Assembly: GCA_038279365.1 (NCBI GenBank)
Contig: JAYODI010000091.1
Location: 1 to 22,687, forward strand
DNA: 22,687 nt
Direction: 5' to 3'
Source of the DNA: Candidatus Latescibacterota bacterium
GTDB lineage: Bacteria; Latescibacterota; UBA2968
The position numbers were made by a program, and so were the translations under genes. This document shows positions 175-13,227 of this stretch, in pieces. The notes beneath the pieces were generated by a model that had not been told where the DNA came from, did not search any database, and worked only from the letters and a program-made list of their open reading frames with translations. Position 1 is the stretch's first letter, and every line of letters begins with the position of its first letter.

Positions 175-1908
175 CTAAAAAAAAAAACGACTGCCCTTCC
201 CTTCATTGCTTTCCACACCAATTTCTCCCCCCATCAAATCTACCAACTGAGACGAAATGGTTAGACCCAATCCTGTGCCACCAAACTCGCGGGTGGTGGA
301 AGTATCGGCTTGTGAAAACGCATCAAAAATGACTTTTTGTTTGTCTTGCGCAATACCAATACCTGTATCAATGACTTCAAATAGGAGGGTGATAGTGTCG
401 GGTTTGTTTGTGATGGCATTGACATTAAGAGTCACACTGCCTATGTCTGTAAATTTGATGGCGTTGCCTAACAAATTGATCAAGACCTGTGATAACCGAC
501 TGGGGTCTCCCAGGAGCTTGGACGGCACATTGTTGGCAACATTTAGATTGAAATGGAGTGATTTTTCTTTTGCCTGAGGTTCAAAGGCTGTCATACTGCC
601 TTTGAGTACGTCATCTAATAAAAAGAGTGTATGTGTAAGACGCATTTGCCCAGCTTCAATTTTTGAAAAATCAAGAATGTCGTTGATCAGTTCTAAGAGA
701 TGGTATCCACTGTTGATGATGTTTTTGACATAGCGATATTGTTTGTCATTGAGGTCACCAAATGTTCTGTCTTCTAAAACTTCGGAAAAACCAATAATGG
801 CATTGAGTGGGGTACGAATTTCGTGGCTCATATTGGCCAAAAAATCGCTTTTGGTTTTGTTGGCGGCTTCGGCTGCTTCTCGTGCTTTGCTTAAGTGTGT
901 GATGTTGTGTAAAAGCATTAAGCGGCTGAGTATGTTGTGATTGCTGTCGCGCAAAGCGGTCACTCGAATGTCGTATGTTTGCACGCCTAATGGATTGGTG
1001 ATATCAAATTCTTGTTCAAAGTCGTTATTTTGTTTGATTTTTTTAACGAGCGCGGGATAGGGGGTCAATATATCAGACAGCGCCAAACCCACGACTTGTT
1101 TTTCTGTACAATTGAAAATTTGTCGTGCAGAAGGATTCATATCTGCTATTCTATCTTGTTGGTCAAATACCAAAACGCCATCTTCAATGTTTTCGACCAC
1201 CTTATCGCGTGCGATGGGGACAATGTCCATAAAGTGAAAGCGCAAAAAACTCCAAAATGCCGACAGTCCCATAATGATAAATGCAAAAGGTGTTAAATCG
1301 AGATGTGGAAAAGGACTGTGGCCAGATAAATAAATGGCGTTGGCAATCCAAGGTGCCAAAACACCCGTAAGCAGCGTTAGGGCTTGGCCCCGATAGAGTC
1401 GATCTGTGCGAGTTAACAGGCGGATAGACAGCAGACCGCCCCACCCCAAGATGACATAAGAGTATGTTGCATGAACCCAAAAGTAGGCACCAAATTGGGT
1501 GTCTAAAACGCCAAACCCACTTGAGGTGTCTATGCTTATGTGGCTGTAAAGCAGGCCATGAAGGGGGTTTGTCCAAACAACAAGAAGGGTTAATATGGGC
1601 TCGATAAGTAAGTATGACAAATAGGGTGCAGGCCGTCCAAGAAAACGCAACATGAATGCCACCCAAAAACCAGGTACGCCCACAATGCCGATATAGGCCA
1701 CATTGGACCAAAATATTTTGGTCGAAATATCAACGCTGGCCATTTCTAAAGCATAAGCCAATGCCCATACGGTTGTTGACAGCATAATGCCTACAAACCA
1801 CCGCATATCTGTGTTGTGGCGGCGATACCACGTGTAGATAGCTGTGCCTAAGGCGGCAAATGCCGATAATGCAAGCGGGATGGTATAGGGTGTGTATTGC
1901 CAAGTCAC
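175..1908 (-). CDS. Sensor histidine kinase, HisKA_7TM + PAS + HisKA + HATPase_c, no receiver domain
   Basis: Hydrophobic N-terminus with WTNPLH and DLTPFAF motifs; PAS-like segment; H-box [11 protein letters not shown]-box [16 protein letters not shown] and GGTGLGL G-boxes. GTG start. The stop follows a T11 run (see findings). Confidence 0.92.
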
Positions 1909-1918
1909 GTTTTTTGTC

Positions 1919-4117
1919 TCATTGATTTTCTAATGCTTTGTTGATGATGTCTACCAGTTGCCCTGGTGTATAGGGTTTGGATAAATAATCATCCATTCCA
2001 GCCGTTAAAAAACGCTCGCGATCACCCGTCATGGCATGGGCTGTTAAAGCGATGATGGGGATGTGGTGATCCGTTGCCCGTTCTTTTGACCGTATGATTT
2101 GTGCGGCCTCAAAACCATCCATTTTGGGCATTTGCCCATCCATGAGTATCAAATCGAAGGTTTGTTTTTCAAATGCTTCTACAGCTTCTTGTCCGTTTTC
2201 GACTGTGGTGACCTTACAGTCTAACTTTTTTAAGATGCCTTGTGCAAAAATTTGATTCATTGGATTGTCCTCAACAAGTAAAATATGCAATTGAGGTCTG
2301 ATAAGGTTGAGGCCCTGTTTTTGTGTTTGTTGTATGTCTGAAGATGGTTTGCCTCTTTTTTCTAAAACAACCGTAAAATGAAAACAACTGCCTTGATTGA
2401 GTTCGCTTTCGACCCACATGCGTCCACCCATCATTTCGACCAAACGAACCGCAATGGCCAACCCCAACCCTGTGCCACCATATTGGCGTGTCATAGATGA
2501 ATCGGCTTGAGAAAAAGCTTCAAAAATAACACCTTGTTTGTCTTTGGATATGCCAATGCCTGTGTCGGTTACGGCAATGTGTAAATTCACGGTTTTTTCT
2601 GTTTGATCGATCAAATCGATCAAAACAGATACGTATCCCGATTCGGTAAATTTGATGGCATTGCCCACCAAGTTGATGATGATTTGATTGAGTCGATCAG
2701 GATCACCTAACAAAATGCGTGGCACTTCGGGTGTAATATCCCATTTGAACCGCAATGATTTTTTGTCGGCCAGTGCCGCCAATGGGTTGAGTGCAACACC
2801 CAACATTTCTTCTAAGGCAAAGGGCGTTGGATCCAATTGCAATTTACCCGCTTCAATGCGAGAAAAGTCTAAGACATCGTTGATAATGGTGAGCAACAGA
2901 TCTGCCGATTTGCGCACAGTTTTGAGATACCCTTTTTGTTCATCATCCAGTTTTGTATCTAAGAGCAACTCTGACATGCCCAAAATACCGTTCATTGGGG
3001 TGCGAATTTCGTGGCTCATATTGGCCAAAAACTCACTTTTGGCCTTGTTGGCGGCTTCAGCCATTTCTTTTGATGCGCGCAGATCACGTTCAACTTCTTT
3101 GAGCCACGTAATGTCGTGAATAAGCAATACACGACAGCGTAACCGACCCAACTTGTCGTGGAGAGAAGAGATGCGCAATTCATAAACCAATGGTATGGGA
3201 TCGTTGTCGATAACAATTTCTTCATGGGCATTTTCAACATTGGAAAAGCGCGCGACCAACTCTGGAAAGTTGGAGAATACATCGGTGGCATATTGGCCAA
3301 TAAGGTTTGCATTGGGTTTGTTCATCAAACGCAAGGTGCCTGGGTTGTAATCGATGATGCGGTTTTCGGAATCAAAAACAATAATGCCATCTTCCATGCC
3401 ATCAATGACGGTATCGCGTGCGATGGGCACCACCGTAAGCAATTGGAAGCGGAATGCACCCCAAAAGACAACCAATCCCATAATAATAAATGCAAAAGGT
3501 GTCAGATCTAAATGTGGAAAGGGGTTGAAGCCAAACAGATACATGATGTTGGCGCCCCAAGGAGAGAGCAAGCCCAATAAGATGGCAATGGTTTGACTGC
3601 GATAAAGTTGTGGCACGCGAATAAGGCGGCGAACCAAAAGGACGGACCCCCAAACCAACAACACATAAGAATAGGCTGTGTGAATCCAAAAAAAGGATCC
3701 GTGTTCAACAAGAAGGATATCAAAATTGACCAGTGTTTCAATGTAGCGACGATGGTGTAACAACCCATGCCAGGGGTTTGTCCAGGCCATAAAAATGGTG
3801 AGCAGAGGTTCAATCAATAACCATTTCCAAGGAAAGCCTTGTTCACCCGAATACTGTTTGGTAAAAACGAGCCAAAAAGCAGGTACGCCTGTGATGCCGA
3901 TGTACATCAAATTGGTCCAAAAAACTTTGGGCGGCAATGCAATGAGAGATAATTCTAAGGTGTAACACAAAGTCCAAAAGGCCATGCTCATCATGAGTCC
4001 GGCAAATGGCCCTGCGCCGTTTGTGTCTCGATGTCGCCAAGCATATATGCTGAGGGCAAATGCAAGGAGTGCAGCACAAATGAGGGGCAGTGTATAAGGA
4101 GTGTATTGCAATGTCAT
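1919..4117 (-). CDS. Hybrid sensor histidine kinase, HisKA_7TM + PAS + HisKA + HATPase_c + receiver
   Basis: Same 7TM motifs (WTNPWH, DLTPFAF); [28 protein letters not shown]-terminal receiver with LLVEDN, LILMDGQMP, ALTA, SKP. Confidence 0.95.
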   Translation of the reverse strand: MTLQYTPYTLPLICAALLAFALSIYAWRHRDTNGAGPFAGLMMSMAFWTLCYTLELSLIALPPKVFWTNLMYIGITGVPAFWLVFTKQYSGEQGFPWKWLLIEPLLTIFMAWTNPWHGLLHHRRYIETLVNFDILLVEHGSFFWIHTAYSYVLLVWGSVLLVRRLIRVPQLYRSQTIAILLGLLSPWGANIMYLFGFNPFPHLDLTPFAFIIMGLVVFWGAFRFQLLTVVPIARDTVIDGMEDGIIVFDSENRIIDYNPGTLRLMNKPNANLIGQYATDVFSNFPELVARFSNVENAHEEIVIDNDPIPLVYELRISSLHDKLGRLRCRVLLIHDITWLKEVERDLRASKEMAEAANKAKSEFLANMSHEIRTPMNGILGMSELLLDTKLDDEQKGYLKTVRKSADLLLTIINDVLDFSRIEAGKLQLDPTPFALEEMLGVALNPLAALADKKSLRFKWDITPEVPRILLGDPDRLNQIIINLVGNAIKFTESGYVSVLIDLIDQTEKTVNLHIAVTDTGIGISKDKQGVIFEAFSQADSSMTRQYGGTGLGLAIAVRLVEMMGGRMWVESELNQGSCFHFTVVLEKRGKPSSDIQQTQKQGLNLIRPQLHILLVEDNPMNQIFAQGILKKLDCKVTTVENGQEAVEAFEKQTFDLILMDGQMPKMDGFEAAQIIRSKERATDHHIPIIALTAHAMTGDRERFLTAGMDDYLSKPYTPGQLVDIINKALENQ
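2991..3129. repeat. Near-identical 139-bp segment shared with 5230-5368 (copy 1)
   Basis: Manual alignment gives 3 mismatches in 139 bp, with 68 consecutive identical bases at 3045-3112. Confidence 0.85.
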
Positions 4118-4169
4118 AAGCGGCTCAATTAAAATAAACTAAAGAAGGATGTGTTTTTTGATTGTTATT

Positions 4170-6186
4170 TCAGGTTTTGAGTATGCGATTAATGGTATCT
4201 ATCAACTGCCCTGGTGTAAAGGGTTTGCTTAAATAATCATCCATGCCAGCATCTAAAAAGCGCTTACGGTCATCTGACAAAGCATGTGCTGTTAGGGCAA
4301 TAATGGGTGTGTGTTTGTTATGTATGGCTTCGTGTTTACGAATGATTTGGGTGGCTTCAAAACCGTCCATAACAGGCATTTGACCGTCCATTAAAATGAG
4401 GTCAAAGGTGTTTTTTTTGCAATGGGAAACAGCTTCTTGGCCATTTTTAGCAACAATAACCCGACACCCTAATTTTTCTAAGATTTGTTGGGTAAATAAT
4501 TGGTTTGTGGGGTTGTCTTCAACTGTGAGAATATGTAAATCGGTGTGTGCCAAAGTCAACTGTTTTTGAGTATCTGTGTCGGATGTGGCATTTGCCTTTT
4601 TGAATGTTGCTGTAAAAGAGAATTGACTGCCGTGACCCACATCACTGGTAACCCAAATTTTGCCTCCCATCAATTCGACCAAGCGGGCAGAAATGGTCAA
4701 TCCCAATCCTGTGCCACCATATTGTCTTGTGGTAGAAGCATCGGCTTGAGAAAATGCTTCAAAAATGGCCATCTGTTTTTCTTGTGGTATACCGATGCCT
4801 GTGTCTCTGACATCCATTTGCAAGGTGATTTCATCGGACGATTGGTGCTGTGTTTTTACGTTGATGGTTATCTGCCCCGATGGCGTAAACTTAATGGCAT
4901 TGCCCACCAAGTTGGTGACAATTTGTGTAAAACGATCCGAATCCCCTTTTATGTGATTGGGAATATCGGGTGCCACGTGCCACTGAAATTGGAGGTTTGC
5001 TTGCTGTGCTTGAAGTGCGAGTGGCTTTAAGATGGTGTCTAAGGTTTCTCGTATGGCAAATGTGTGGTGATACAATTCTAATTTGCCTGCTTCAATACGC
5101 GAGAAGTCTAAAACATCGTTAATGACATTGAGAAGTACGTGAGCTGATTTTTGTACGGTATTCAAATAATCTTTTTGTTGGTTTTCCAATGCAGTGTCTA
5201 AAAGCAATTCGGTCATGCCCATAATGCCATTCATTGGGGTGCGAATTTCGTGGCTCATATTGGCCAAAAATTCACTTTTGGCTTTGTTGGCGGCTTCAGC
5301 CATTTCTTTTGATGCGCGCAGATCACGTTCAACTTCTTTGAGCCACGTAATATCGTGAATAAGCAATATACGGCAACGCAACCGACCCAATCGGTCATAA
5401 AGAGATGAAATACGCACCTCATAGACCAAGGGCAAGACACCGTTTTCTAAGACAATTTCTTCGTGTGCCTGTTCTAAAAAAGGATCGGTAATTTTTGTGA
5501 CAATATCGGGAAATTTTGAAAAAACATCGGAGGCATATTGCCCCAACAATTTTTCATTGGGTTTGTTCAAAAGATGTTTTGCACCTGCGTTGTGGTCTAT
5601 AACGCGGTTTTCAATGTCAAAAACCACAATGCCATTTTCCATGCCCTCAATGACGGTGTCGCGCGCAATGGGTACAATGTTTAAAAGCTGAAAACGAAAC
5701 AGTCCCCAATACACAGCTGCCCCCATGATAATAAATGCAAAGGGTGTGATGTCTAAGTAGGGGAAAGGGCTTAATCCTGAAAGGTAAATGGCATTGGCTG
5801 TCCAAGGGGCAAGGACACCAAAGAGCAATATGCCACCTTGTTTGCGGTAAACGTGTCGTGTGCGCAGTACCATGCGCCACAAAACAACCGATCCACAAAA
5901 TAACAACAGATATGAATATAAAGCATGAACCCAAAAATAAGGGCCCAATGTAACGGTGATGACCGAAAATGAGTGAGATGTTTGCCTAAAAAATTTGAGC
6001 AGACTCGGTTGTCATAGACAAGGATAAAGCATAGGTTATCGGCCAGCCTACAAAACAGTGCATGAGTGCAGCAAATGTTTTGGCACCCGGTGTTTCTTGT
6101 TGGCGATAGGCATAAAAAAACAACCCAGTAGCCAATGCTGCTGATAACAAAAGCGGGATTGTATAGGGGGTATATTGCCAAATCAC
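4170..6186 (-). pseudogene. Disrupted hybrid HisKA_7TM histidine kinase (N-terminal fragment 5986-6186; intact 3' frame 4170-5981)
   Basis: The 6186 GTG frame [12 protein letters not shown] matches both paralog N-termini and stops at TAG where they have Trp (QIF*AN vs KIFWSN/KVFWTN). The downstream frame resumes as TSHSFSVITVTLGPYFWVH. About 58 codons present in the paralogs are absent. PAS, kinase and receiver motifs are intact. Confidence 0.85.
5230..5368. repeat. Near-identical 139-bp segment shared with 2991-3129 (copy 2)
   Basis: See copy 1. It encodes [45 protein letters not shown] in both genes. Confidence 0.85.
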
Positions 6187-8730: not shown

Positions 8731-10737
8731 TCAATATAAAGAGACCAAATCGTGTACTTGTTTTTCTAAGCGCATGAGTGCCTGCACGTAAATTTCTGCC
8801 CAATGTTGAAAACCAGATTCATTTTGTTGCTCTATTTCCCACCGCAAACCGGGTAACATCCAGGGTGCATAGCCTTCAAATGGGTCTTCGGCACCAAATA
8901 AGGAACGGCTCCACGGACGTTCTTGTAAACCGTTTGCATGTAACCAAGCACGTTCGAGACCGATGAGTTGTTGGTTGATTTGTTGTAACACTTGAGGGTT
9001 GTCAATGGGTGTGTTGCGTTGGGCTTCATATTGTTTGCTGATGGTGGCTAATTTTTGAATGTGGGTATCAAATATGGTTTTATCAAAAGAGAACCCTATT
9101 GTTTGTGCACGTTGCGACAGGGCATTAAAATGTTTTTCAAAGTCTGTGGCATAGGGGGTGATGGCATAGGGAATAACATCGGCATTAGCAAGGCGCAATG
9201 CAATGATGCCATTGATGGTGGCCATTGTGGGGCCTGATATGAATTGGGGATCGGCAAATTTTTCGTACCACGAAAGGGAGTCGTAAACCGAATGATACAC
9301 GGGCACACCACTGGACATGGCCAAAGCGGCAGAGGGAATTCCTGCGTGAACATAAAATGGCAAGTGGTCGGAGCCACCTCCTAAGTTGCCAAATTGTTCT
9401 TGACCTGCTTTTGTGATGCGTTCTGTCCAGACATCGTATAGGGTTTGGTCGGTTGTTGGGTTTGCCACAGATTGTGTTGCTTCTGTAATGATGCCTTTGA
9501 GTGAGGGCGATGCCGCGGCTCCAAAAGCCAAACCTGTTGCGGCCATATCGGCATTGATATAAGCCACGGCTTTGGTGGATAATTCGGCATTGAAGTGTTC
9601 CACCCATTCTGTGGAACCCATAATGCCAAATTCTTCGGCGTCCCAGTGTGCTATGCGAATGCTGCGTTTGGGGTGGTGACCTGCTTCTTTTAGTTTACCC
9701 AACGCTTCAGAAAGGGTCAACAACATGGCCGTTCCACTGTTGGGATCGGCGGTACCAAAGGCCCAGGCATCGTAGTGACAGCCTAAGATGATCCATTCGT
9801 CGGGTTTTTCACTGCCCCAGAGTGTGCCAATGACGTTGGTTGCACGGGTTTGTTCAAACGTTTGACGCACACAAACCCGCACCGTGAGTTGTGAACCGCC
9901 CGTGATGCGGTATGTAAATGGCAACCCGCCTTGCCAAGCATAAGGCACAGTTTGCCCCGTCATACGTTTGAGAATTTCGATGGCAGAACCATAGGGGAGG
10001 GGAGCCACAGGAATTTTGGGCAATGCGACATCGGAAGGGTCTAAACGCGGTGTTTCGGGCAATGCTGGCTGGTTTGGGGTGAGTGGATCACCCGGATAAG
10101 GCAATGTGAGGAGGGAACCGCGTTGAATGGCACTGTCGTTGGCAAAACGCCCTTCGGGATAGGTGGCACCTTTTGCATACCCCATGTCGGCGGGGTCGGT
10201 GTACATGAGAACGGCGGCGGCACCCATTTCTTGGGCATATTTGACTTTGAAACCTCTAAAATTGAATCCATAACGGGCTAAGACAATTTTGCCTTTTATG
10301 GAAATGTTCATATCGCGCAATTTTTCAAAATCTTCTTTTCGGCCATAATTGGCATAAACAACTTCTGCGGTCACATCTCCGGAGCCTGAAAATGCCACCC
10401 AACCCGGTGTGAGGTCTGGGTGGGCGGAGTAGGGATCGTCTTTGAGGATGTTTTCTTGGTTGTTTAAGGGGATGCGTGTGGGCGTGACCAACGCGACAAA
10501 GGGTGGGGTGTCATTTTTGGGGCTGTAAACATTGTAATCATAGGTGTCTACGGCCAAGCCCGCTTGGTGCATGACCTCGGCGAGATAGTCACCCACTTGT
10601 CGATTGGCGATTGATCCAAAGGGGTGTGGTACTTTGGTGATGTGTGTTAAATGTTCACGAAAACGTTCTGATGTGGGCCATTTTTTTAATTGGGCTTCTA
10701 AGGCCGTTTGTTCTTGGTAAGTGTGAAAGCCGATCAA
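8731..10737 (-). CDS. M28 peptidase, glutamate carboxypeptidase II / transferrin-receptor-like (PA + M28 + dimerisation domain)
   Basis: YANYGRKEDF, FRGFKV, IQRGS (PA domain); HYDAW, ADPNSGT, WDAEEFG, GGGSDH, YHS (metal and catalytic motifs). TTG start 8 nt after AGGAGG (10751-10746). Confidence 0.92.
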   Translation of the reverse strand: MIGFHTYQEQTALEAQLKKWPTSERFREHLTHITKVPHPFGSIANRQVGDYLAEVMHQAGLAVDTYDYNVYSPKNDTPPFVALVTPTRIPLNNQENILKDDPYSAHPDLTPGWVAFSGSGDVTAEVVYANYGRKEDFEKLRDMNISIKGKIVLARYGFNFRGFKVKYAQEMGAAAVLMYTDPADMGYAKGATYPEGRFANDSAIQRGSLLTLPYPGDPLTPNQPALPETPRLDPSDVALPKIPVAPLPYGSAIEILKRMTGQTVPYAWQGGLPFTYRITGGSQLTVRVCVRQTFEQTRATNVIGTLWGSEKPDEWIILGCHYDAWAFGTADPNSGTAMLLTLSEALGKLKEAGHHPKRSIRIAHWDAEEFGIMGSTEWVEHFNAELSTKAVAYINADMAATGLAFGAAASPSLKGIITEATQSVANPTTDQTLYDVWTERITKAGQEQFGNLGGGSDHLPFYVHAGIPSAALAMSSGVPVYHSVYDSLSWYEKFADPQFISGPTMATINGIIALRLANADVIPYAITPYATDFEKHFNALSQRAQTIGFSFDKTIFDTHIQKLATISKQYEAQRNTPIDNPQVLQQINQQLIGLERAWLHANGLQERPWSRSLFGAEDPFEGYAPWMLPGLRWEIEQQNESGFQHWAEIYVQALMRLEKQVHDLVSLY

Positions 10738-10761
10738 AACAGAATCCTCCTGTGCGCATGA

Positions 10762-10779
10762 TGCCTCATTTTTGAGACA
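10762..10779. promoter_or_regulatory. Palindrome, candidate enhancer-binding-protein site
   Basis: TGCCTCA-TTTT-TGAGACA (6/7 symmetric), about 130-145 bp upstream of the sigma54 motif and separated from it by a very AT-rich tract. Confidence 0.4.
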
Positions 10780-10906
10780 GATGCGTCGCGCTGTGTGTTG
10801 AAATGGATGACAGTATAAAAAAAAACGAAATAATATTTATATATAAATGTTTGTTTTATATTGAATTGTGAAAATTTTAAATCTTTTTTGTTGAGATGTG
10901 ATGGCA

Positions 10907-10922
10907 TGGTACACCCCTTGCA
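10907..10922 (+). promoter_or_regulatory. Sigma54 (-24/-12) promoter
   Basis: TGGTACACCCCTTGCA vs consensus TGGCACR-N4-TTGCW; exact GG-N10-GC spacing (GG 10908-10909, GC 10920-10921). Predicts +1 near 10931-10933. Confidence 0.7.
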
Positions 10923-10931
10923 ATATATCAG

Positions 10932-11372
10932 GGTGTCACACAACAAACTGCTTACGTTGCATCGGTGGCTTACACACAGTCAGCGCAATATCTGACTCGG
11001 CACACAATATGCCAACCAAAATGCCAGGATGACGAAGCAGACGCAAGGGTTTTTAATCTTACGTATTTGTTTTCAGATAAAGCGAGGGCACCATGTTATT
11101 CGCTTGCTGAATGAGCCGACCGAGATTTTTTCGGAGGCGACAGTGTATCGTTCGTAAAACGGACCAACGGTTGCATCTTTTGCACACATTGTCAGCACAG
11201 TTACTGACACGGCTCTAAAGCCCCTATCCAAACGCGAAGGTGACCGATGTCGTAGACGAACACGATGAAGCCGGGGTAGAGATAGAAAATAGATCGCTTG
11301 GAGGTTTTTATGCCACCTGCATGTAAATAGCGACCGCGTGCGTTTCGAGGCACACGCGGTCGCTTTCTTTTT
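10932..11372 (+). ncRNA. Candidate large structured non-coding RNA (~440 nt), family not recognised
   Basis: Bounded by a sigma54 promoter and a terminator; no + strand ORF of 60 aa or more; many nested complementary segments, e.g. 10948-10963/11028-11040, 10978-10983/10992-10997, 11080-11086/11099-11105, 11113-11118/11210-11215, 11139-11146/11186-11193. Confidence 0.65.
11329..11372 (+). terminator. Strong intrinsic terminator
   Basis: Perfect 12-bp GC-rich stem AGCGACCGCGTG / CACGCGGTCGCT followed by TTCTTTTT. No T tract on the opposite strand, so it is oriented for a + strand transcript. Confidence 0.88.
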
Positions 11373-11433
11373 GTGTCTTTTTCATTGTGTTGTATCTTGT
11401 CATTTGAGCACCATTTTAAAATGGGCTCTTTTT

Positions 11434-11461
11434 TTGTCAATTGGCAAATTTTAGGTATCTT
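11434..11461 (+). promoter_or_regulatory. Putative sigma70 promoter for the queD-like gene
   Basis: TTGTCA-N16-TATCTT, about 65 nt upstream of the ATG at 11526. Confidence 0.45.
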
Positions 11462-11525: not shown

Positions 11526-11981
11526 ATGGGTGTCTATTATTCGACCAAGCGCATTGGGCCTATTAGCACAGGGCACCGCCAATGGCGAGATATGGGCCAT
11601 TGTTCATTTGTTCATGGATATGGACGGTATGTGCAATTGGTATTTGCGTGTACCGCTTTGGATGATAAAATGTGGGTGGTCGATTTTGGCGGTCTAAAAG
11701 ACATCCGAAAGTGGTTGGAGGACCAATGGGACCATCGCCTTCTGATTGCTTCTGATGATCCTTTGTTGGAGACATTTCAAGATCTTCACAACAAAGGTGG
11801 CATTGATTTGCATGTGATGGATGTGACAAAAGGTTGGGGGCCAGGTATTGAAGCGTCCTGCAAGTTTGTGTATGACTATGTTGACCCACTCATTCGCGCA
11901 CAAAGTGACAATCGATGTTGGGTTAAACGCGTTGAAATTTGGGAGCATGAGAACAATTCTGCGATCTATGAGGTTGAATAA
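11526..11981 (+). CDS. queD: 6-carboxy-5,6,7,8-tetrahydropterin synthase / PTPS family (QueD-like)
   Basis: GHRQ, CSFVHGY (CxxxHG), VVDFGGLK, WDH and terminal WEHENNSA motifs of T-fold PTPS/QueD; AGGAG RBS at 11513-11517. Confidence 0.85.
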   Translation: MGVYYSTKRIGPISTGHRQWRDMGHCSFVHGYGRYVQLVFACTALDDKMWVVDFGGLKDIRKWLEDQWDHRLLIASDDPLLETFQDLHNKGGIDLHVMDVTKGWGPGIEASCKFVYDYVDPLIRAQSDNRCWVKRVEIWEHENNSAIYEVE

Positions 11982-12167: not shown

Positions 12168-13118
12168 TTAATACCCTCTCACTTTGTCGACCACGTTGCG
12201 AACGGGTTCACCTTTTAAATAGCGTTCTAAATTGGCAACAAAAAACTCAAATAAACGACGTGCACGGTGTTGTGAGGCACCTGCGCGATGCGGTGTGAGC
12301 AAAAGGTTGGGCGCATCCCAGAGGGGACTGTTTTCTGGCAAGGGTTCTGTTTCGCACACGTCTAAGGCAGCCCCTGCTATTTCACCACTTTTAAGCGCGT
12401 CTACCAACGCATCTTCATCAACAATACCACCACGTGTGACATTGATCAAAAATGCGGAAGATTTCATTTTTTTAAATTCTTCTGCACCAAAGAGATGGTG
12501 GGTTTCTTTGGTGTATGGGCACGCTGTCATGATGGCATCACACCGTTTGAGCAAGTCGTCTAAATTTTCTTTGTTTGCCGGTTTTAATTCTGCAACGCCT
12601 TCAGGTTTTTCTGTGCGTACGGTATCTAATGCCAAAACGGTCATGTCGTAACCTTGTGCCCGTTTTAACATTTCCATTCCAAAACCACCCAGTCCAATAA
12701 GCCCCAACGTTCCTCCCGAAACTTCTACAACATTGACCCCTCCCCAACGTTTTTCTTTCATGCGTTCCAAACCTGGGCGAATACCTCTTGCTAAGGCGAG
12801 TAACATGGCCCAGGCATGTTCGCCACCTTGTGGGGCATGCAAACCTGCGGCATTTGAAATTTTGACATCGCGTTCAATAATTTCGGGAAATAAGAAGTGG
12901 TCCATGCCTGCGCTGAAAGATTGAATCCACTTGAGGTTGGGGGCGGCTGCACATACGGGAGGTTTGAAAAAGCCAATCAGGACTTCAACATCGCTGGCCA
13001 ATGCAACGGCTTCATCGTCGTCGGTTGTGAAAAGGATTTCGCTGTTGTATTTTGCTGCAACGGTTTGAAAGGTTTGGACTTGGTTTTCATCAAACGGGTA
13101 ATGAAGCAATATTTTCAT
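12168..13118 (-). CDS. D-2-hydroxyacid dehydrogenase family protein
   Basis: WIQSFSAGMD, GLIGLGGFG Rossmann motif, INVTRGGIVDE, LDVCETEPLP, TPH. Start moved from 13166 to the ATG at 13118 (MKILLH) because AGAGGGAG precedes it. Confidence 0.92.
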   Translation of the reverse strand: MKILLHYPFDENQVQTFQTVAAKYNSEILFTTDDDEAVALASDVEVLIGFFKPPVCAAAPNLKWIQSFSAGMDHFLFPEIIERDVKISNAAGLHAPQGGEHAWAMLLALARGIRPGLERMKEKRWGGVNVVEVSGGTLGLIGLGGFGMEMLKRAQGYDMTVLALDTVRTEKPEGVAELKPANKENLDDLLKRCDAIMTACPYTKETHHLFGAEEFKKMKSSAFLINVTRGGIVDEDALVDALKSGEIAGAALDVCETEPLPENSPLWDAPNLLLTPHRAGASQHRARRLFEFFVANLERYLKGEPVRNVVDKVRGY

Positions 13119-13227
13119 TTTGCGCTCCCTCTTTTGGGTCTGTTGGCCAAGTGGTGAACGGTTCAATATAGTGGCCGACTGTTAAATGTGAAATGAGAAA
13201 CGCAAGGGCCTCATCATATAATAAAAA

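Follow-up and report, generated by a model that had tools for sequence, protein, structure and literature searches.

Between an M28 peptidase gene on the minus strand (8731-10737) and a gene of the PTPS/QueD family on the plus strand (11526-11981), a Candidatus Latescibacterota bacterium (assembly GCA_038279365.1, contig JAYODI010000091.1) carries a stretch, 10907-11375, that raises two questions: what kind of gene does it contain, and what could the product of such a gene do? We analyzed positions 1 to 22,687 of the contig, hereafter called the window, and all coordinates refer to this stretch of 22,687 nucleotides (nt). An earlier note, made from the letters of the window, had proposed a highly structured non-coding RNA of about 440 nt under sigma54 control. 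By its conservation the transcription unit is real. It forms a free-standing RNA gene of about 440 nt on the plus strand (~10933 to ~11372), predicted to run from a sigma54-type promoter to an intrinsic terminator. Judged from sequence comparison, the RNA is the genus-specific tandem form of an undescribed family that occurs in all four families of one Latescibacterota class. The family unit is a covarying stem with a three-way junction and two hairpins, followed by a variable linker, a Shine-Dalgarno site, a tiny open reading frame (ORF) and a GC-rich hairpin or terminator.

Conservation of the transcription unit

BLAST over 61 related genomes found the stretch in its own genome and in two genomes of the same genus, with 84% and 81% identity, and in public genome contigs a pattern scan led to these two congeners only. 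A pattern scan of metagenome contigs gave 12 stretches, of which a covariance model confirmed three (L022, L023 and L024) and rejected nine as chance matches. The orthologue set used below consists of five distinct sequences (G000, G001, G002, L022/L023, which are alike, and L024), whose pairwise identity over the RNA is 80.6-98.6%. No second copy was found in the own genome by BLAST or by the covariance models R1 and R3 introduced below.

In the alignment of these five sequences, conservation begins sharply at the putative promoter and stops after the terminator, and both flanks have diverged. The promoter candidate, TGGTAC-N5-TTGCA at 10907-10922 on the plus strand, with TGG at -24, TTGC at -12 and a predicted start near 10932-10934, is the sole match in the window. 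The bare pattern is weak evidence, with at least one match in 24 of 100 shuffles of the window, and it is conservation that supports the motif: the core TGG..A...CCTTGC is kept with its exact spacing in all five orthologues. The genome encodes rpoN (sigma54), gives about 26 full-length matches to the sigma54-activator domain, and holds 18 strict TGGCAC-N5-TTGCW sites, one of which is nearly identical to the promoter of the congeners. An upstream activator site was not identified ahead of the promoter in the five-orthologue alignment. The elements that stand out there are GTCGCGCTGTG (10786-10796, kept in four of the five) and the invariant TGTGCGCA (10751-10758).

At the other end, the intrinsic terminator (11329-11375, plus strand) is built from a 12-base-pair (bp) stem (11329-11340 paired to 11353-11364), an apical stem of 3 bp and a U-run. 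Its predicted energy is -33.6 kcal/mol (z -3.72), and one of 200 shuffles is as stable. It is nearly invariant in the five orthologues, where all cells are paired and one C-G pair has changed to U-G. The hairpin 11329-11364 is absent from the output of a simple terminator scan. Conservation from promoter through terminator thus speaks for the sigma54 motif and the terminator-ended plus-strand unit that the earlier note had put forward, and fold energy and near-invariance bear out its 12-bp terminator.

The order peptidase, RNA, queD and convergent 2-hydroxyacid dehydrogenase is found in G000, L022/L023 and G001. The G002 and L024 loci lack queD, and there the terminator of the RNA faces the 3' end of the dehydrogenase gene directly. 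Since the RNA is retained at these two of five loci without any co-directional gene downstream, we conclude that it stands alone in this genus, as had been proposed before.

A tandem duplication of a folded unit

A covariance model built from 10926-11048 alone (R1) also matches 11152-11257 and the equivalent site in both congeners, with E values of 7e-5 to 3e-7. The RNA therefore contains two homologous modules. When the first half of the RNA was aligned with the second, the local score was 57, compared with 25.6 +/- 5.0 (maximum 49) for 300 shuffles, and the alignment spans the module, the Shine-Dalgarno site, the mini-ORF and the 5' arm and loop of the terminator. We conclude that a unit of ~215 nt has been duplicated in tandem to give the RNA. 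By self-alignment, hairpin 1 (11115-11138, 97.5% of cells paired) is the homologue of the terminator's 5' arm with its loop, and probably represents what is left of the first unit's own terminator.

In module 1 (10948-11040), an interrupted 17-bp stem leads to a three-way junction that carries hairpin A (10979-10996) and hairpin B (10999-11013). This fold is supported by covariance matches of R1 and R2 (see below) and by pair counts. Its paralogue, module 2 (11150-11261), has an extra stem segment, with hairpin A at 11191-11208 and hairpin B at 11211-11222, and is supported by the R1 match in three genomes and by pair counts. Hairpin A (GUCAG, an 8-nt loop, CUGAC) and nearby stretches are identical in both modules of all five orthologues. 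A further stem, CCGGG/CUUGG around a variable A-rich loop (11271-11301), is 100% paired, three of its five pairs vary on one side only, and its 3' arm overlaps the start of the second Shine-Dalgarno site. All of these elements lie on the plus strand.

In an alignment of the ten modules of the genus, which is model-fitted and so leans towards structure, the 30 pairs of the module fold have 96.7% of cells paired, compared with 28-56% for slid partners, and five pairs have changed on both sides. The two-module model in a MAFFT alignment of the five sequences comprises 83 pairs with 98.3% of cells paired and nine one-sided changes. Variable columns are concentrated outside the helices under this model (12 of 166 paired columns vs 108 of 280 unpaired ones, Fisher p 3e-14).

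The fold drawn in the earlier note survives in part, with half of it unsupported. The core of its first domain, 10948-11040 with the hairpins 10979-10996 and 10999-11013, was correct, whereas the closure 10942-47/11066-71 and the hairpin 11041-64 were not upheld. The helices of its third domain (11113-18/11210-15 and 11139-46/11186-93) and of its fourth (11224-28/11281-85) are not conserved. They are among the helices peculiar to that fold, whose 32 pairs have 76.9% of cells paired in the same MAFFT alignment and are broken in several orthologues. Nor did fold energy favor its nearly continuous nested pairing: the minimum free energy of the whole RNA is -132.5 kcal/mol on the plus strand (z -2.06) and -135.4 kcal/mol on the minus strand (z -2.00), and a z of about -2 on either strand does not discriminate.

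A class-wide RNA family

A model of all ten modules of this genus (R2) matches G058, a genome of another family, over its full length (E 1.4e-5). Behind the match, G058 has AGGAGG, an AUG CCA CC. start, six codons, UAG and a GC-rich hairpin, as in the window. A class-wide pattern (hairpin-A arm, 80-110 nt, GGAGG, 2-6 nt, ATGCCACC) was found in 18 of 132 genomes, and its reversed control in none of the 132; by inspection, eight of the matches were true ones in other genera and seven lay in a coding-like context. A second class-wide pattern, hairpin A with RGGAGG, was discarded as noisy, having given 10 control matches and missed G000.

A third model, R3, was built from five genomes of family f2 and confined to the stem and junction, with the Shine-Dalgarno/ORF region excluded. 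It matches 13 of the 132 class genomes, including the known sites in G058 (8.6e-10) and G054 (7.4e-8) and new ones in families f1, f2 and f3, and with laxer filters it also matches three of the 21 genomes of genus g5. In 36 sampled genomes of other families in the phylum, R3 found no match. A weak early match of R1 in G042 (E 0.02) was later found to lie within a true homologue. All searches together give a copy in 21 of 132 genomes, 12 of 31 genera and four of four families of the class, and 21 is a lower bound because the search filters were strict. A genus-restricted RNA, as suggested by BLAST and R1, was thereby overturned by R2, R3 and the pattern searches.

The homologues are mostly single-unit, unlike the tandem form of the window's genus. 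A tandem arrangement is also present in G007, which belongs to the same family and another genus, where it stands under a sigma70-like promoter. In a model-fitted alignment of 17 sequences, which leans towards structure in the same way, the 48 pairs have 83.0% of cells paired vs 35-46% with slid partners, and changes on both sides occur in 35 of the 48 pairs vs 12-19 when slid. The covariation score is 0.288 vs 0.05-0.09 for slid partners, and none of 500 shuffles reaches the observed values. RNAalifold on a plain MAFFT alignment of five f2 sequences reported compensatory changes in 19 of 89 pairs. By these counts, covariation within the family is strong. A further alignment, five of whose rows were spurious, was left out of account.

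Rfam 15 gave no match in the window at the gathering threshold; with E values up to 10, the best score was 21.9 bits against a threshold of 55. Over eight homologue loci the only Rfam match was to an adjacent ZTP riboswitch, and in a further check of homologues both matches were far below the gathering thresholds. Full-text literature searches did not find the RNA. On these Rfam and literature searches, the claim that the RNA is undescribed holds.

Outside this genus, every homologue has TTGAC(A/T/G) or a near variant ~17 nt before TAnnnT just upstream of the RNA. By eye, the sigma54-type motif is confined to the window's genus, and the other homologues have sigma70-like promoters. The TTGGCA of the window's genus may be derived from an ancestral -35 hexamer.

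Neighboring genes differ between families and lineages. In G035 and G047, a ZMP/ZTP riboswitch (RF01750, 53.3 bits; L040 1782-1869 in G035, with an equivalent position in G047) begins 14 nt past the terminator of the element and is followed by a 2-hydroxyacid dehydrogenase gene. The product is 47% identical to that of the dehydrogenase gene at 12168-13166 in the window, so the RNA and the dehydrogenase are adjacent in two families, with differing orientations. In G007, G011 and G004, a homologous gene, CBS-domain-like by eye from its translation, follows 45-85 nt after the element. These arrangements, in which the element lies directly before a gene with no room for a promoter, and the presence of queD behind the RNA at three of the five loci of this genus, would suit a cis-acting leader or attenuator of the downstream gene, here queD. 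We regard such a leader as very unlikely. G002 and L024 retain the RNA with neither queD nor a co-directional gene, the 150 nt before queD are unconserved and contain a sigma70-like site, and the downstream genes are unrelated between lineages.

Behind the hairpin of the RNA, a second canonical terminator follows at ~20-40 nt (by eye) in G058, G054, G052, G050, G051, G042, G060 and G066, which suggests that the first hairpin does more than end the transcript. In L037 (G032), a GC-rich, self-complementary stretch ~60-230 nt after the terminator of the element resembles another structured leader and has no Rfam match at gathering score.

Mini-ORFs in front of the hairpins

The earlier note saw no credible protein gene in the unit. 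This is true of longer frames: both strands of 10900-11380 together hold 11 ORFs of at least 25 amino acids, and a frameshift or stop interrupts 10 of them in one orthologue or more. The sole unbroken one (10936-11046, minus strand) lies in near-invariant sequence. Two mini-ORFs preceded by Shine-Dalgarno sites were overlooked, both on the plus strand. Mini-ORF 2 (11310-11330, within a feature at 11300-11330) begins 5 nt after GGAGG (11300-11304) and reads AUG CCA CCU GCA UGU AAA UAG, or MPPACK. Its stop codon (11328-11330) overlaps the base of the terminator stem at 11329. The Shine-Dalgarno site, AUG, length and stop are kept in all five orthologues, the sequence of the 5-nt spacer varies, and the five peptides are MPPACK (twice), MPPECK, MPPESK and MPPVCR. 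Mini-ORF 1 (11093-11110, MLFAC-stop, within a feature at 11084-11110) lies behind a Shine-Dalgarno-like GAGGG (11084-11088) with a 4-nt spacer. Its codons 4 and 5 specify Ala-Cys, as in mini-ORF 2, by synonymous codons. The Shine-Dalgarno site of the first unit is shifted in G001 yet retained as AAGGAG, and the ORF still has five codons, its stop changed from TGA to TAA at the same place.

As R3 excludes the Shine-Dalgarno/ORF region, the 11 homologues detected by this model alone form a set in which the mini-ORF is free of ascertainment bias. Nine of them have an AGGAGG-like site, 3-6 nt, AUG and then Pro-Pro. The proline codons vary at the third position, CCA/CCG in the first and CCG/CCU/CCA in the second, and later residues that recur do so with differing codons (Arg AGG/CGA, Phe UUU/UUC, Asn AAU/AAC, Tyr UAU/UAC). 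Across homologues, the spacer between Shine-Dalgarno site and AUG is variable in sequence and 3-6 nt long. The hairpin begins at a conserved 19-23 nt from the AUG. Position 4 is mostly taken by Asp or Gly, and Cys stands at position 5 or 6 in many lineages. We read the third-position and amino-acid-preserving codon variation as a signature of translation, and from these codons the mini-ORF looks translated. A purely non-coding RNA, which the earlier note implied, does not agree with a Shine-Dalgarno site and Met-Pro-Pro mini-ORF conserved across the family.

Could the peptides themselves be the products? In a micropeptide mRNA, MPPACK and MLFAC would be the functional molecules and the folded domains would serve as 5' regulatory leaders. 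The strong Shine-Dalgarno site, the conserved Met-Pro-Pro start, the recurrent Cys at position 5 or 6 and the Ala-Cys kept with synonymous codons between ORF 1 and ORF 2 are in line with this idea. We nevertheless consider it improbable, as the peptide varies freely past residue 3, its length of 6-32 codons is dictated by the sequence of the hairpin, and the neighboring genes, which differ between families, include no conserved modifying or export genes.

A stronger contender, still unlikely in our view, is an RNA that codes for nothing and acts in trans, as a sponge for a protein or as a base-pairing small RNA. Its modules would bind one factor, and its Shine-Dalgarno/AUG sequences would be untranslated decoys that imitate sites of translation initiation. 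The identity of hairpin A and its neighboring stretches between modules of all five orthologues, despite the divergence of the units, fits a binding site of this kind. So do a folded domain that is better conserved than the body of the ORF and a locus that stands alone with strong terminators. The genome also encodes CsrA, and Shine-Dalgarno-like sites with GGA occur repeatedly. On the other hand, wobble variation and amino-acid-preserving codon changes would not be expected of a decoy. The csrA gene lies in a flgL / fliW-like / csrA cluster (names by eye from translations), and its position beside a fliW-like gene implies that CsrA has a protein antagonist. A CsrA sponge of the CsrB/RsmZ type was dropped as unlikely, as just two invariant GGA motifs exist in the genus (11133-35, in a stem, and 11301-03) and Rfam gave no match.

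Sequestration of Hfq fares no better. CrcZ and CrcY of Pseudomonas are sigma54/CbrB-dependent RNAs of ~400 nt, and CrcZ/CrcY sequesters Hfq. The RNA described here resembles them in its putative sigma54-type promoter, its similar length, its stand-alone gene with a terminator and its internal repeats. It differs in the Shine-Dalgarno-preceded mini-ORFs and in the lack of AANAANAA motifs, the A-rich sites of Hfq/Crc: none is present on the plus strand of 10932-11372, and the single hit on the minus strand lies in the U-run. A gene for Hfq (PF17209) was not found in the genome, which is 98.5% complete, so that incompleteness leaves a small doubt. For these two reasons the analogy with CrcZ and Hfq drawn in the earlier note fails.

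Proposed mechanism

The explanation that we lean to, at somewhat less than even confidence, is that regulation by this RNA is coupled to translation: a ribosome pausing at Pro-Pro would govern the hairpin. The sequences show the conservation, the duplication, the family membership, the covariation and the codon-like variation of the mini-ORF; we infer that the RNA would be transcribed with sigma54 and translated, and that pausing on the mini-ORF would be coupled to the hairpin. Ribosomes would load on the mini-ORF and either pause at Pro-Pro or continue to the stop or into the hairpin, and this choice would decide if the hairpin forms. While paused, a ribosome would abut the hairpin and leave it intact, but one that had advanced to the stop at 11328-11330 or beyond would open the 5' arm. 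Formation of the hairpin would in turn set 3'-end formation, read-through or the stability of the RNA. The folded domain might be a sensor that gates ribosome access, or it might be the effector part of the RNA. In this genus, an ancestral sigma70-like promoter would have been replaced by a sigma54 promoter, which would place the RNA under an enhancer-binding protein.

There is precedent for parts of this scheme. Pro-Pro followed by Asp, Gly or Glu is a pause context that requires EF-P, within a wider motif hierarchy. The mgtP and mgtL leaders of Salmonella are leader-peptide attenuators with proline codons. MgtL is mentioned in PMC11611912. PMC5021804 describes a polyproline stall before the pyrL terminator that raises termination in cells without EF-P, and PPG stalls that are relieved by EF-P. 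The likeness of the family unit to mgtP/mgtL and to the polyproline-pyrL reporter lies in the Shine-Dalgarno site, the very short ORF with consecutive Pro codons and the terminator hairpin right behind it. The differences are a covarying domain of 110-170 nt before the ORF, the lack of a constant regulated gene and of any such gene at two of the five loci of this genus, the lack of an identified anti-terminator and, in this genus, the tandem arrangement and the predicted sigma54-type promoter. A leader-peptide attenuator layout, with a Shine-Dalgarno site and short ORF directly before an intrinsic terminator, is present family-wide. The target of such an attenuator is lineage-dependent: a co-directional downstream gene is present in other genera and absent in G002 and L024.

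Several observations weigh against a hairpin that is controlled by a paused ribosome. Unit 1 reads Leu-Phe where unit 2 reads Pro-Pro, and two of the 11 homologues found by R3 alone have no Pro-Pro, one reading Met-Pro-Leu and the other starting with GUG and having no proline. The length of the mini-ORF is unconserved, with six codons and UAG in three genera and 9-32 codons elsewhere, often through the hairpin. Candidates for anti-terminator pairings were seen by eye in single lineages, and none is conserved across the family. The G002 and L024 loci and the second terminators would leave control of read-through with no obvious target. As for the fold, the five-sequence MAFFT alignment contains no double compensatory change within the genus, and the ten-module and 17-sequence pair counts carry the model-fitted lean noted above.

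With no conserved downstream target in the genus and a second terminator in many homologues, the output of a translation-coupled RNA may be the RNA itself. There is also a broader proposal, which we hold to be doubtful. The family would be a class-wide riboregulator in which the covarying domain is permanently joined to a Met-Pro-Pro-(Asp/Gly) mini-ORF that borders on a hairpin. It would sense EF-P activity, proline supply or translation capacity, and its output would be its own fate. In this genus, the tandem form and the change from sigma70 to sigma54 would link translation status to the signal of an enhancer-binding protein.

A well-supported structured RNA family is hereby added to a phylum without cultured representatives, for which our literature searches found no described non-coding RNAs. 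The architecture, a folded domain followed by a Pro-Pro mini-ORF and a hairpin, is rare, and it makes directly testable the hypothesis that very short polyproline ORFs outside classical operon leaders read translation status. The gene also appears to have undergone both a doubling of its entire unit in tandem and a promoter switch from sigma70 to sigma54, two evolutionary events that may inform how regulatory RNAs are rewired. The case also carries a warning for annotation, as intergenic RNAs labeled non-coding may conceal conserved 6-codon ORFs.

Comparison with other known RNAs

Other sigma54-dependent and modular RNAs share single features with the one described here. NrsZ of Pseudomonas is an NtrC/sigma54-dependent small RNA made of repeated stem-loop modules. 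The common points are sigma54 control, predicted in our case, and tandem homologous modules in one transcript. The modules here differ in being ~215 nt long with a three-way junction and a mini-ORF, and there is no sequence or Rfam relation. Tandem riboswitches, for example those for glycine, also have two homologous domains in series followed by a terminator. In contrast to these, the RNA has no consistent gene association, no match to a known aptamer, and a Shine-Dalgarno site, ORF and hairpin for each domain. The covariation of the family is typical of RNAs that bind ligands or factors. Of the features of a riboswitch, covariation is present, whereas association with one gene class is absent, since the neighbors differ. 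A T-box-like reading of the GGUGG in some terminators was dropped, as Rfam gave no T-box match and the stretch is absent from the RNA of the window.

The housekeeping RNAs were compared as well. ARAGORN finds no transfer RNA or transfer-messenger RNA (tmRNA) in the window, and the tmRNA of the genome lies on contig C172. The signal recognition particle (SRP) RNA and RNase P RNA were each found elsewhere in the genome. The 6S RNA model RF00013 has no match in any of the 132 class genomes, and the 6S-Flavo model has none in the window, so the 6S RNA of the class is either missing or too divergent to detect. This leaves room for the RNA to be that divergent, RNA-polymerase-binding 6S RNA, all the more as tmRNA, SRP RNA and RNase P RNA are accounted for and the RNA is rod-like and mostly single-copy. 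We find this scarcely credible: the consensus fold shows only small internal loops and, at its apex, a three-way junction, with no large central bubble, and a Shine-Dalgarno site, mini-ORF and terminator are not features of 6S RNA. The earlier note had seen no hallmarks of tmRNA, RNase P RNA, SRP RNA or 6S RNA, and the Rfam and ARAGORN results and the finding of the first three elsewhere in the genome agree with it.

Presence in RNA libraries

Metatranscriptome contigs from four runs in three studies cover pieces within 10949-11366. As assembled contigs they give weak support, showing presence and not ends, strand or level. None of them covers the sequence upstream of 10949 or the stretch 11367-11456, and contigs from three studies end at 11275. 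In one run the depth figure is 46.6 on the RNA vs 10.3 on queD, a contig-based value that cannot show levels. A low-depth contig from run X18, belonging to a divergent relative, has 15 other letters directly before 11031 that resemble the end of hairpin 1. It may reflect a different arrangement of units or an assembly artefact of the repeat.

Other features of the window

On the minus strand at 175-5948, the window encodes three consecutive histidine kinases with an N-terminal seven-transmembrane region (HisKA_7TM), two of them hybrids with receiver domains; no link between these kinases and the sigma54-type promoter could be made. A small hairpin lies in the 5' leader of the M28 peptidase gene (10759-10775, minus strand), ~20 nt before the AGGAGG of the peptidase, and is adjoined by the invariant TGTGCGCA. 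It contains a G-U pair that is possible on the minus strand only. The hairpin is kept in all five orthologues, with a compensatory change from U-A to C-G in G001 and a change from U-G to U-A in G002.

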